Part shown: in pieces, positions 51,475 through 57,400 of the stretch
Layout of the letters: every line of letters begins with the position of its first letter
Position numbering within the stretch: position 1 is the first letter of the stretch
Origin: Saccostrea echinata
Lineage: Eukaryota
Length of the DNA stretch: 64,000 nucleotides
Assembly: GCF_033153115.1 (NCBI RefSeq)
Contig: NW_026889803.1
Span: 1,240,001 to 1,304,000, forward strand
Reading direction: 5' to 3'
The notes under the pieces: model-generated
Database searches by the model: none
What the model saw: only the letters and a program-made list of their open reading frames with translations
What the model was told of the DNA's origin: nothing
Translations under genes and position numbers: made by a program

Positions 51475-54400
51475 CAAAAGAGAACAGAATTTACGCCAGA
51501 ACAAGTGAGGATGCTGGAGGAGGCCTATGGACAGGGCACAAAGAAAGGAAAGGCCTGGTTAGGTGCTCACCAGGAATTGGCAGCAAAATTAAATTTAACA
51601 GAACTTCAAGTAAAGGTAGTTCCCTTATCCATTTATGCTTTAAATTTGTTTTTAGATAAATAAACCTTGGTACATGTTACCATGTATTTGCCTCAGTTTG
51701 ATCAAAAGCCCTAGGTTAATCCATATTTTTACAATAACAGAAGTACATATTAATAATATTAATATTACATGCTTGATTGTGGTATTTTATTTTTTCATAT
51801 ATATATATATTATTTCAGAATTGGTTGGGAAATCACCACAAATCCAAAAGTGAACATGGTAAATTGGTTCAAAGGAAGACACTCCCAGCAGTAAGGCCAA
51901 CTGCTTATTCCTTATTTTGTAAGGAATACTCCAAGGGTAAGATCTGACTTTTAAAATTTTAAAAAACCTTTTTTTAAACTTTTCCAATGAATTATAATTC
52001 ACTTTGAAAATTATAGAATCTGGTAAATTTAATCCAATAGCCAATCAGGTTTTGATATAGTTAAGTGACAGTTCCCTTTTTTAGGTTCACCTGACTCACT
52101 CAGGTGACCTAATGATATATGTTTTCATCTGTCGTCATTCGTCGTCAATCGGTCGTATACTTTTGAAAATTTTTAGCTTCTTCTCTGAAACCACTGAACC
52201 AATGTCAACCAGTTTTGGCATATAGCATCTATAGGTGAAGAGGAGTAAAAATTGTGAAATCCATGGCTCTTGCCCCCTTGGGGCCTGAGGGGTGGGGCAA
52301 AAACCACTAAAATTAATGCAATCTTTAAAAATCTTCTTCTTTGCTCCTGGACATCAAGCAGTCAAACTGTTCACATGATTGTACATGTAAGAATGAGCCC
52401 TCTACCAAAATTGTGAAATTCATGGCCCCAGGATCAGGAGTTCTGGTGCTAGGGTGGGGCTCTATTGAATTTAGTGAAAATGCATTATTTTTAAAAAAAA
52501 AATCTTCCCCTCTGCTCGTGGGTATTAAGCCAATGAACTATGTACATAGTTATGATGAGGAAGGGTGCCTCTTCCAAAATTGTGAATTTCTTGGCCCTTG
52601 GGTCAGGGGTTCTGATGTTAGGGCGGGGCTCTATTGATTATATAGTGGAAATGCATTAATTCTTTGAAAATCTCTTCTGGTCCTGGGTTTTATGCCGATG
52701 ATCTAAGTACATAGTTATGATGAGGAAGGGTGCCTCTTCCAAAAATTGTTAATTTGATGGCCTCTGGGGGGTACCTGTTGGCTGGGGGCCCCTAATGATT
52801 ATATTCTGAAATTTAATTAATGCTTTTAAAATCTGCTCTTTGTTATTAATCAAAGATTTAAGATGAGCAAGGGTACCTTTTCCAAAATTGTTATATGTGT
52901 GTCCCCAGGGTCAGGGATTCCTGTGAGGTGGGGCACTACTGATTATATGGTGGAAATGCATTTTTTCTTTGTTCTTCTGCTCTGCCTCTTGGTATTAAGT
53001 ATAAAAAGTAAGCATGCTAAGTGTATAGTTATGATGAGCAAAGGTACTGCCTCCTTCAAAATCGTGAATTTCATGTCCTCTGGTTTAACCACTGTTAACA
53101 CAAGAACCAAATTCAATTGCTACATGATACTCAGATGACCTATAAGGCCTGTGGGCCTCTTGTTTGTCAAATAATATTATTTCATTGTATCTTCATTTCC
53201 TTTTTTATAACCGTATGCCACATACATTCATACATATATTTATTAAGTTTTATTAATTTAGTAAGAAAATTATTTTACATTATTATCTTGATTACATGTA
53301 TGTTCTATTTCACTTGAAAAATACTCAAATTTGCAGATCATCCTGGCTTTAATCCTTCAATATGGAAAATGGAGTGGGAGGCAGCTGGAGAGAAGGAGAA
53401 AGAGAGGTACGCAAAGATGGTGAGGGAGATGTCAGAAGAGGGGGGAAGTGGATCAACAAATGATGATCCCACTACTCAGAAGAAGACCATTAGAACCCTT
53501 CTGAAGCAACTGGAATGGACTGTAAATACCTTAGATTTTTAGTAGAGATTTTTGATATTTTACAATTATTCATGTTAACCTAATTATTTTTGCCTCTATT
53601 GCTGTGGATTAATAATTGATTATGAAGGACTAATATTCATGGATTTCATGAATTTACGCTTGCCTATGAATTAACATATCCACAAGGGACATCTTACAAT
53701 TGTATCAGTTCACTACAACGAATGTTTTGTAAATATGAAATCATTATGACCCCAAAATCCAGTTAAATTTTGGTTGTCAATGTGCAACAGAGACATTTAT
53801 CTGAATTGGCTTCGGATTGAATCCAGGGACTCTGGCATGCCAGTCCAGTGGGTTAACCCACTAGTCCAAGCTAGTAGGATGCCATGTACTGTATCTAATG
53901 TACACTACCACATATGAACCAACCACCACAGATTAATATGATTTCCCTTTATGATAGTTTAATTCAAGCTTGTTTTAATTATCACAATAATGTAAACAAG
54001 TTAATGAATTTGTTAATATTATATTCATAAATGCATGCATGTACTAAGGTATGCATTGTTTATGTATATAAATTAAGTCACTCAAAACAAACTTATTTCC
54101 TGACTAGAAACAGACAGTATTTTTATAAAAATAGGAGGAAACTTATAGAAAAGATTTTGATTAAATGAAGAATTCAATTTTTCTCCATCAAATATTTTGG
54201 CTGGTATAGTCATAATTTCAGCTAGGTAAAAATATCAGGTACTAGCAGATTTTGAAAGGCCTGTTTTATTATAACTCTCATGTTTATGATGTCATTTAAT
54301 CTCCATTTTTTGTTGAAAAGAATCTGTTTTCATATTATATATCATGAAAATTATAAGTATCAGGGTTTTGCAGTCATCTTGGGACCAAAAAATGCTGATT

Positions 54401-57400
54401 TCTTGACTTCTATTTGAGTCTTCTTTTAATTGAACTCATTTTGATAATGTAAAATGATCTATATTTGTAGAGTAGGCGATTGGAAAATATGGGCTTGCCC
54501 AATTTCGCTTTGGTGGCTGAAAATAATACTGTCCACAGCGTTGGAACAGGGAGGGGTCGAGAATTCCTTGATCGTGAGGATATTGAACCAAATTTCAGCC
54601 GATTTTGTAATCAAGGTTAGTAGGTCTATAAATTGATATTGGTTTATATGTCAACTTTTGTAATAATCGATAAGGATTACGTGCCATACGGCCCCCAGTA
54701 ATATGACAAAAATATAAAATCTTAATTTTACTCTTATTTATACATGCACTTAATTGTTGATATCATTATAAAAATACTGCATGTAGTTGAGTGTAACATT
54801 AAAAATTTTCACTCCAAGAAAACTATTGTCAACCGAGGCACAGCCGAGGTTGACAATGGTTTTTTCGAGGGGTTAAAATTTTCAATGTTACACTCAACTA
54901 TACATGCAGTATTTATTATATTATACTGAATGTTTTATACAAATACATATTACAGTGAACCTTGCGCGCATAAATTCTGCGCAGTCAATATTTTTTGGAA
55001 TAACACCCTTCATCAAGCAATGTTGACTGTTGCTATGCTGGAGGGCATGGCTTCATTATTCAGCAGGTAATAGTGTTTTTTAACAAATGTTTCTTGACGA
55101 ATCAGATTCTAATAATTTACATGAAAGTATAATATCGTGGAATACCACTTTTACCAAAAACAAACACCATATGAAAGATTAAATATTTTTTGGGGGTAGG
55201 CCTACCATGTTTACATCCGATTTCCATTGAATTTTGGCCCATGAAGTTGCCTCACTCTTTGAAATGAAGCCTTAAAAATATACCAGCAAAAGAGGGTACA
55301 TTTTGCCCCTTTGGCATCTTTGTATTTTATTGACTATACATACCTATATGTGAAAGGAGAAAAATGTACCTCACTGTACTCAAATAGTGTGTTTTAAAAC
55401 ATTTGAAAATCTTGTTGGCCTTTCCAATCAAAATAAATTCACATGCTAATTGAGGTACCAATGGGTGAATTCAAAAAAAATGACCAAACACATATTTATC
55501 AACCCACACTAAAAACACAGGCAATGAAAATAGATTTCTATGTCTCAGCATATGTCTTTAGATAGTGTCTAAATACCTGCCAAATATCTCCTTGATATCT
55601 CAACTAACAAAAAAGTTATACCCAAAAATGATGCTAAAATTGTCAGGAGTGCAACACCTTTTTGTGACATTTTGAAATTTCAATATTTTTTGGAGATCTG
55701 TGAAATAAAAAACAATGTTTCATTGAAAATAAAGACTTTCCTGATAATATTCAAAGTATTGAGCTTTAAATGTGGACTGTCATAACTTTTGTTTAATCAA
55801 GTTGTGGCCATGGCTGATGTTTAAAAAAATGTTATACCATGTCAGGAGTGCAACAGAAAAAATGTAGTGTTGCAAAAAAACATCAATTGTAAAATTCTGA
55901 TAGAAAATTAAGACAAAATAGAATTTTGGACGTGTAAAATAATAACTGATATACATTTTAAAACTTAAAAATGTTATATAAATCACAAGCAGCATTAATG
56001 AGAGTCAAGTATATGTGCATACCCAAAAATGTCAGGAGTGCAACATTTGATGTTTTGCTCCCAAGCATGAAAAAACTATTATCATTATATGATTTTCTGA
56101 TTTTTATTTTGGAAAATAAAGACACAAAGAACATTTTTACCAAATAGATTTATCAATTACAGGATCTGTCTGTGCTTCAGATCCATATTTCTATGGTCAG
56201 GAGTGCAACACATTTTTTTAAAGATTCAAGTTGTGTGATGAAAAGACTTCTATTCATGCTTAGAAGTATTCATTAATTAATAATGATCTTTTTTGTATAA
56301 TTTAATGCTAAATTATTGATAGTTTTATTAATAAAAATCCTTCCCTTTTCAATTTTATCAATTCAGATGTGTTTTTATCTTTTTTGTGATTTTTTTAATG
56401 AACGTTAAAAATAAACACACTAAAACATTGTCATTAAATTCAAGTAATTCCTCCTCAACTTCACTGAAACAACAGAACAAGTTCTTATGTATTTTTCACT
56501 TCACAATTCTACTTTAAAGGCCCCAATGCTTTTGATCAGGAGTGCAACAAATATGTTAGAATTATAAATCATCCAATAAGAATAAAAATAAAGAAAAAGT
56601 GATGAGTAGAATTTTTCTGGTGGGTTACTGTGTTTGTTCTCTAAAGGAAAATATGCTTTAAAAATATTTTATCTTTTAAATATACATTTAAGCTAGTTTT
56701 TTGGCATAATATAGGGTATAATTCCAGATAAAATGCGAATTTTAAATACTTTCATCTGTTTTAATTATGAAGTATTGGACTATAAACATTGCACAATTTC
56801 ATTACCACTTGATGTTGCTAACACTTTATGAATTTTTGTGTTCTATGGTTTTAATTTTAAATTTTACTGCAGTCAGGAGTGCAACAAAACTGCTTTATAA
56901 TTACCAATGCTTGTTAACTATTGATCTTTACTAAAACAAATAAGTTGAAAAAAAATGTTCGATACTATTTGATGTTCAAATCACTATGTCTATCAACAAA
57001 TTTCAGAAATTTTACAGTCAATTCAGGGAATAGTTTTCATCATTTCACATATATTTTAAATAAAATTTATATATATTACACTTTGCAAATAATCATGTTT
57101 TAAGGTCTTCAAAATATGAAAAACCTGCTGTAAACGATGAAAAATATCAACACAACAAATTAATTTACAAAGTAAGAATGGGATATTGTGTGTTATAATT
57201 TTTAAAACAATGTTAAATAAAATACATATCAGATGTCAGGAGTGCAACACAATAATGTAACATAGGGTCACTTCAAAATCTAGTATTTTTTGTAAGAGAA
57301 CTCGTATATAACAATTCTTTTTTGGCTTAGATTTAAAGATTTGACTTGAACAGACAAAAAAGTGAATTTTATGGAATTTTATTGCTTCATATTTTTTTCA

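Follow-up and report, generated by a model that had tools for sequence, protein, structure and literature searches.

The window analysed here, a 64,000-nucleotide stretch of the Saccostrea echinata genome (contig NW_026889803.1, positions 1,240,001 to 1,304,000 of the forward strand), carries five open exons that begin with a homeodomain. We interpret these exons as a truncated fragment of the second gene of a KDZ (Kyakuja-like) transposon, whose full form encodes a five-module protein, probably a helper for end binding and chromatin targeting. We give this reading a probability of roughly 60%. The identity of fragment and element is highly probable, and the mechanism proposed for the helper, which draws on sequence and predicted models, is put forward tentatively. 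The architecture of the helper protein is undescribed and was found from cnidarians to fish. A literature search gave no paper that treats the helper gene or derives I-repeats from KDZ elements, although an earlier mention of an HMG box or homeodomain beside KDZ is possible.

The KDZ elements

A count of copies in the genome had been proposed as a check of the original prediction, which was made from the window sequence alone. Exon 3 had 12 matches: the window, six copies elsewhere at 95-97% identity and five decayed copies. Each of the six near-identical copies lies inside one element that has terminal inverted repeats (TIRs) along with a KDZ transposase, and these six copies support the early suggestion of a transposon-borne DNA-binding protein. 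As determined from their flanks, the element of this first family has 146-bp TIRs with CACC...GGTG ends, and each TIR contains an 11-bp word twice. Copies measure 41.3, 44.2, 44.7 and 47.7 kb; two others are enlarged by insertions to 61.7 kb and 186.6 kb, and a 5.9-kb deletion derivative exists. A 7-bp target site duplication (TSD) was found in four of the seven copies with both ends (C8, C65, C72 and C5), a degenerate TIR pair on C13 being excluded from the count. The full copies differ by 0.1-0.9% in introns, which indicates that the element family is young.

The KDZ transposase of the full copies, P0010, is an 861-aa protein encoded by 16 exons in the right half of the element, on the strand opposite to the helper gene and convergent with it. 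It contains KDZ (PF18758, E 8.4e-44), CxC2 (E 5.4e-12) and CxC1 (E 1.4e-9) domains. All seven KDZ hits in the genome were located in elements with the helper gene, and six of these elements are of the first family. The seventh, on C38, represents a second, divergent family; this element is 41.9 kb long, with a distinct 123-bp TIR and a 7-bp TSD. Its transposase is 43-63% identical to that of the first family in matched exons, and its divergent homeodomain, HMG and middle exons are convergent with the transposase; I-repeat and chromo exons were not found in this element. The intron between homeodomain codons 46 and 47 has an identical position in both families. In amphioxus, the gene model P0142 joins CxC to the middle, I-repeat and chromo modules, which indicates physical linkage of CxC and helper modules in that animal.

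Further observations were made on the elements. The copies on C4, C6 and C113 have intact TIRs and unmatched flanks, and on C4 one flank is nearly an inverted copy of the other. At a TA-repeat tract in the homeodomain intron, the element is split by about 15 kb in the C72 copy and by about 151 kb in the C5 copy, which retains a matching 7-bp TSD across 186.6 kb. Separating the 3' ends of the two convergent genes, as seen in the C4 element, is a 332-bp tandem array whose unit number ranges from 4 to 21 among copies. Elements with TIRs related to the C38 TIR (about 90% of the TIR) are located on C8, C43, C22, C28, C23, C52, C9, C41 and C3. They are 29-47 kb long, apart from those of 3.4 and 7.6 kb, and four of the nine have a 7-bp TSD. 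The interiors of two were scanned and are about 92% alike; open reading frame (ORF) lists for two 10-kb stretches of these elements were uninformative on gene content.

The fragment in the window

The exon anatomy read from the window sequence was borne out, as the exons have AG/GT ends and give 221 stop-free codons when joined. The five open, in-phase exons are present, with four of them inside the 51475..54615 interval originally assigned to the gene and the fifth 6 kb beyond it. When joined, they correspond to residues 4-224 of the full helper P0001 with 6 differences. The expectation that the exons are joined in transcripts also held. All four joints were present in RNA contigs (Logan; 2 studies), joints 1 and 4 in 4/4 runs and joints 2 and 3 in 3/4, where a joint is a GT..AG skip of 203-6078 nt and the RNA status of the runs, none of which is recorded as RNA, is presumed. 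The features of the region are as follows.

50764..50811, - strand: one terminus of the high-copy repeat enclosing the fragment; 96% match to such a terminus on C36.
50821..55475, + strand: KDZ transposon internal fragment, part 1; 94-96% identical to copies on C4, C6, C8, C65 and C72.
51475..51615, + strand: second coding exon of the full gene, covering homeodomain positions 3-46; Pfam Homeodomain E 6.2e-7, splice sites.
51616..51818, + strand: phase-0 intron that separates homeodomain codons 46 and 47; GT..AG joint in 4/4 runs.
51819..51936, + strand: exon for the end of homeodomain helix 3 (W48, G50, N51), linker and HMG-like helix 1; joints, AlphaFold model.
52080..53166, + strand: high-copy repeat nested in the next intron; common to all full copies.
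53337..53521, + strand: exon for helices 2-3 of the HMG-like segment and the MADS-like module's long helix; joints, model.
54471..54615, + strand: exon for the MADS/NRF1-like module's beta-hairpin and short helices, with homology to the N-terminal part of GTF2IRD1.
55476..59619, no strand: insertions private to the window copy, by comparison with full copies.
59620..61484, + strand: KDZ transposon internal fragment, part 2; about 96% identical to five full copies.
60694..60768, + strand: exon for the first helix of the GTF2I repeat, the last exon kept in the window copy; joint in 4/4 runs, tblastn.
61483..63166, - strand: remainder of the enclosing high-copy repeat (body and second terminus), beginning at the point where the transposon fragment breaks off.

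The window copy spans only element positions of about 1.27-7.9 kb and carries 4.1 kb of insertions of its own. Part 1 starts at a point about 1.27 kb in from the left end of the element, without TIR and start exon, and part 2 ends inside an intron. An 89-bp piece of an intron of the element is stranded at about 57795-57883, within the window-only insertions. The 9-nt start exon of the full copies was not found in the window, and the window copy also lacks seven downstream exons, both TIRs and the transposase; no KDZ domain was found in the window. Since the repeat at 52080..53166 is common to all full copies, it is older than the window fragment. The enclosing high-copy repeat is of a type that we take to be Helentron-associated. 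It may have captured the fragment, or the element may have been inserted and then deleted in part; both routes are compatible with the data.

Proportions of nonsynonymous (pN) and synonymous (pS) differences were determined for the copies. A comparison of dN/dS among paralogs had been suggested, and its outcome was divided: pN is lower than pS among full copies (C8 helper against the others, pS 0.021-0.024 and pN 0.003-0.005) and about equal to pS in the window copy. Against five full copies, the latter has pN of 0.011-0.013 (6-7 differences) and pS of 0-0.015 (0-2 differences), which are small counts from few sites. Its introns differ by 2.6% from those of full copies, and RNA contigs have the full-copy bases at 51542 and 51853 wherever these are covered. 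Open exons persisting despite a heavy load of transposable elements had been remarked on originally. As a sign of selection or function at this locus they were rejected, because the fragment is recent, the start exon and seven downstream exons are missing and pN is about equal to pS. The sequence comparison thus gives no sign of selection on the window copy since truncation (pN about pS, few sites), and the fragment is most likely decaying and probably non-functional.

Other genes were found around the fragment. A glutathione S-transferase gene (GST_C) occupies 47700-50243 (-), with its first coding exon about 600 bp from the fragment, head to head. A long terminal repeat (LTR) retrotransposon ORF of 2357 codons at 21698-28771 (+) is open throughout and encodes a zinc knuckle, protease, reverse transcriptase, RNase H, integrase and C-terminal PHD finger. 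At 13251-17316 (+) and 32169-32573 (+) lie exons belonging to an Alg9-like mannosyltransferase (a weak match, E 9e-4) and to a class I aldolase.

Modules and distribution of the putative helper protein

The full helper P0001, a Saccostrea echinata protein according to its source, has 457 aa and is encoded by 13 exons. Its order is homeodomain, HMG-like segment, middle module, GTF2I repeat, acidic/basic linker and chromodomain. The combination of homeodomain and HMG box that was originally noticed thus makes up no more than the first third of this protein with its five modules. The gene is open with good splice sites in 4/6 large copies, and the spliced homologs P0007 and P0008 are 72-78% identical to the helper. 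Pfam matches on P0001 were Homeodomain, GTF2I (26.9 bits, cut-off 27) and Chromo; window exons 2-5 taken singly had no Pfam match. The AlphaFold model of P0001 has a mean predicted local distance difference test score of 76, with most domain blocks above 90, and fold matches were obtained for the homeodomain (Z 10.1), I-repeat (Z 10.0) and chromodomain (Z 7.7). In the ESM Atlas, the top cluster for residues 1-285 (0.95) was mostly cnidarian homeobox plus GTF2I, and with the middle module alone as query a single unnamed cluster came up (0.81), which is no more than a lead.

The homeodomain itself was confirmed, as the first window exon alone matches Pfam Homeodomain above the curated cut-off. 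Counted on P0001, the original description holds for the residues named earlier (R5, F8, Q12, L16, W48 and N51), for the loop insertion of three residues, for Gly50 and for the 46/47 intron. The class is another matter. A PYP motif in loop 1 is one mark of the TALE superclass. P0001 has the length of a TALE homeodomain, a kind of loop insertion that arose several times according to the source of the length criterion, and the PYP motif was absent from loop 1 in 26 family homeodomain rows. Gly50 is given as a PBC class feature in Table 1 of PMC4901127; position 50 of 26 family members is Gly in 18, Asp in 4, Arg in 3 and Ile in 1. No PBC domain was found upstream, where the homeodomain starts at P0001 residue 2-3, nor by Pfam. 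The PBC/TALE lead of the original prediction thus proved weak, and membership was rejected because the PYP motif and PBC domain are absent and an HDX-type structure is closest. This structure, PDB 2da4 (named DKFZp686K21156), is presumably human HDX. It was the best homeodomain match in three comparisons, and it shares with the family a gap-free 57-column alignment to the profile, the W-I-G-N of helix 3 and G-M after helix 1. Its lead over Extradenticle was small in one comparison (4.8e-9 versus 3.3e-8) and larger in another (8.3e-6 versus 0.047). HDX is described as a 68-aa homeodomain tentatively placed near POU (PMC2211742).

The HMG-box-like segment noticed in the window was supported by the family profile and the predicted fold. 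P0001 itself has no Pfam HMG box match, and 8/36 family members match at E<=0.05. The family profile of the segment matched TOX (E 1.1e-4) and TFAM (E 2.2e-4). The model shows the three-helix HMG fold (helices 79-90, 96-105 and 108-124), which is comparable to HMGB1 (Z 7.0, root-mean-square deviation 2.5 over 54) and Sox2 (Z 7.4).

The middle module is predicted to have the MADS/NRF1 dimerisation fold. When it was folded separately, the top five of 48,161 chains were NRF1, SRF, MEF2A, MEF2D and SEP3 (Z 7.3-4.5; next 3.6). Its helix - beta-hairpin - helix resembles NRF1 (Z 7.3, root-mean-square deviation 2.6 over 72) and SRF (Z 7.0; Foldseek probability 0.99). No Pfam MADS or NRF1 family was matched among 36 members at E<=0.05, and a complex prediction for two copies of residues 128-203, in which no alignment was used and the fold was uncertain, scored 0.02 and speaks neither for nor against a dimer. 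The GTF2I repeat reached 28.5 bits in P0007 (cut-off 27) and is present in 33/36 family members. The chromodomain (Pfam Chromo E 2.5e-10; best Foldseek hit CBX1) keeps the aromatic cage Y411, W432 and Y435, which we take to be the HP1/Polycomb-type cage positions.

The suggestion that the protein is lineage-specific did not stand, since homologs reach from a cnidarian as far as teleosts. Among 1.84 billion representatives searched, 766 matched at E<=0.001; the best 150 were considered, many of them chromodomain-only, and 30 were looked up. Homologs named among these 30 come from Clytia, bivalves, gastropods, cuttlefish, a nemertean, a crinoid, a sea star, a sea cucumber, amphioxus and teleosts. 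The five-module order was found in 22 of 192 stored proteins and the first four modules in 18, with domain profiles that were built from 36 of the same 192 proteins and are partly circular.

A tree of the middle module and first repeat (49 rows including 5 GTF2IRD1; unrooted) demonstrated that several deep helper lineages coexist in amphioxus and sea cucumber, and placed GTF2IRD1 in a polytomy. The teleost homologs (zgc:113176 type; P0048, P0033, P0052, P0097, P0063 and P0140) form a tight clade with no clear chromodomain. In two proteins of the teleost-type clade a Cys/His-rich tail stands in the place of the chromodomain, which suggests that the reader module is exchangeable. The zgc:113176-type genes are possibly a domesticated gene.

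Relation to TFII-I and proposed function

A cichlid GTF2IRD1 was among the search matches and covered query residues 166-271. The middle-module profile, built without GTF2IRD1, matched GTF2IRD1 residues of about 28-90 in 120/120 GTF2IRD1-type proteins (the best 120 of 532, mostly teleost), with a best E of 1.2e-11; the best of 240 shuffled or reversed controls was E 0.07. The homeodomain, HMG and chromo profiles matched 0/120 of these proteins. By BLASTP, P0001 135-271 aligned collinearly and in one piece with GTF2IRD1 26-198 (E 3e-9). These alignments show that the helper's middle module and I-repeat are homologous to the start of GTF2IRD1. GTF2I and GTF2IRD2 were matched through their solved repeats only, and the N-terminal comparison refers to GTF2IRD1 alone. 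As the attachment of GTF2IRD1 is unresolved and the tree rootless, homology is shown and direction is not.

TFII-I's N-terminal region is called a 'leucine zipper' in PMC8155576 and PMC2865459, and self-association stops on loss of the N-terminal 140 aa (PMC2865459). PMC3493543 describes I-repeats as unique to this family. Like the helper, TFII-I proteins have the 'leucine zipper' region followed by an I-repeat, collinear; they contain 5-6 repeats and no homeodomain, HMG or chromodomain, whereas the helper has one repeat and three other modules. It is conceivable, at somewhat less than even odds, that the vertebrate TFII-I family (GTF2I, GTF2IRD1 and GTF2IRD2) is a domesticated helper of an ancient metazoan KDZ transposon, with the HDX homeodomain and zgc:113176 perhaps separate domestications. 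The TFII-I family genes are Williams-Beuren genes. Under domestication the MADS-fold dimer module would have been retained together with the I-repeat, the latter in multiplied form, whereas homeodomain, HMG box and chromodomain would have disappeared. In its first part, the 'Fake IDs' preprint (10.1101/2022.11.24.517799) deals with the hAT part of GTF2IRD2 only; PMC12062965 and PMC8700633 proved not to be relevant.

For the helper we propose the following action. Two molecules would pair via the MADS-like module, and the homeodomain and I-repeat would grip repeated TIR sites, for which the 11-bp word present twice per TIR is a candidate. The HMG-like box would bend DNA and, with the transposase, help to unite the ends. 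The chromodomain, with its three kept cage aromatics, would dock the complex on methylated histone H3, and the helper may in this way assist the element in choosing landing sites.

Alternative explanations and comparison with known systems

A number of points weigh against the helper reading. Binding, dimerisation and transposition by the helper are inferred and rest on sequence and models. The 7-bp duplication is absent in three of seven first-family copies (C4, C6 and C113). Nine more TIR pairs are related to the C38 TIR, and neither gene was found in the two interiors scanned. KDZ linkage was tested directly in this genome only, with one fused gene model elsewhere. Among homeodomain-bearing family proteins, 18 lack a chromodomain and 22 have one, some being partial. 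Homeodomain position 53 is His instead of the usual Arg, the HMG-like box scores below the Pfam curated cut-off (best family member E 8e-4), and for the middle module the Foldseek E for SRF is just 0.12, with Z values of about 7 that are middling. With regard to the window copy, exon substitutions (7-8/663) are fewer than the 2.6% intron rate predicts, which indicates that some constraint acted on its lineage, and a 125-aa gene model at this copy, P0002, may have a function.

The main rival gives the helper an anti-silencing or self-regulating role as a transcription factor, which would bind its own element, read repressive histone marks through its chromodomain and sustain transposase expression outside the cutting complex. 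All five modules are indeed of transcription-factor or chromatin-reader type, the helper gene is spliced in 4/4 runs, and the TET/JBP gene of fungal Kyakuja was proposed to counter silencing (PMC12730594). We consider this role less likely, since Pfam found no catalytic or known anti-silencing domain on the helper, and an HMG-like bender with a dimer-type module would fit end synapsis as well. Less likely still, the helper is a host transcription-factor gene that KDZ elements captured and carry as passive cargo, and TFII-I came from the host gene and not from a transposon. The 13 ordinary exons, the short-branched teleost clade, which could be a host gene, and the unrooted tree, which gives no direction, are compatible with this origin. 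However, two deeply divergent element families share the gene in the same layout, several deep lineages coexist in amphioxus and in sea cucumber, and pN is below pS among full copies. Moreover, Pfam GTF2I had 4 matches in the genome, three like the second family's exon and one unmatched, and no host-type gene was seen among them, at a low sensitivity. That the window copy itself has become a functional host gene (P0002), such as a dominant-negative fragment with the dimer-type module, is very improbable. Its reading frame and splice sites are intact, the gene model of the source matches it and it lies about 600 bp upstream of the oppositely stranded GST gene, but at least 4 derived amino-acid changes stand against at most 2 silent ones (compared with P0007) and the RNA contigs carry bases of other copies.

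The interest of the helper reading rests mostly on the TFII-I link. It places the I-repeat in a transposon gene alongside TFII-I's N-terminal region, and this 'leucine zipper' region is predicted to have a MADS/NRF1-type fold instead. Where TFII-I and the odd HDX homeodomain came from can now be tested by synteny and trees. A full anatomy is given for an animal Kyakuja-like transposon that is giant, TIR-bounded, with a 7-bp TSD, two-gene and recently active. For homeobox surveys, it means that TALE-length, Gly50 homeodomains can be transposon cargo.

The middle module may be compared with NRF1, whose dimerisation domain is reported to be closest to the SRF MADS domain (PMC10810270). NRF1 has a helix - beta-hairpin - helix and then a separate DNA-binding domain, as does the helper in its predicted fold. 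At 12-15% identity to NRF1/MADS and with no Pfam match, the module has a common fold with them and not a shown descent.

The marks of Kyakuja are a CxC plus KDZ transposase, a 7-bp TSD and 5'-CA..TG-3' ends (Kojima 2025, PMC12730594). The oyster element has all of these and likewise carries a second gene. Its KDZ domain with an N-terminal CxC cluster and its defined termini with target duplication are those of a KDZ transposon, CxC2 scores above CxC1 in P0010, and by TSD, termini and domains it may be called Kyakuja-like. Zisupton and Dileera, with a TSD of 8 bp (PMC12730594), were rejected because the oyster duplications are 7 bp. According to the same source, two Laccaria families of fungal Kyakuja are without TIRs, and fungal elements are about 16-19 kb (two Table S1 rows) with TET/JBP cargo, whereas the oyster elements have 146-bp and 123-bp TIRs and are 41-48 kb. 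The 13- and 16-exon genes and the homeodomain-HMG-MADS-like-GTF2I-chromo cargo of the oyster element are also unlike fungal Kyakuja.

Two-gene DNA transposons with helpers include Harbinger with its Myb protein, EnSpm with TnpA and RAG2-like elements. The Harbinger Myb helper is mentioned in PMC12730594. The oyster element resembles these in having a transposase and a DNA- or chromatin-binding partner in convergent layout, and differs from them in an unrelated transposase superfamily and an unrelated domain set.

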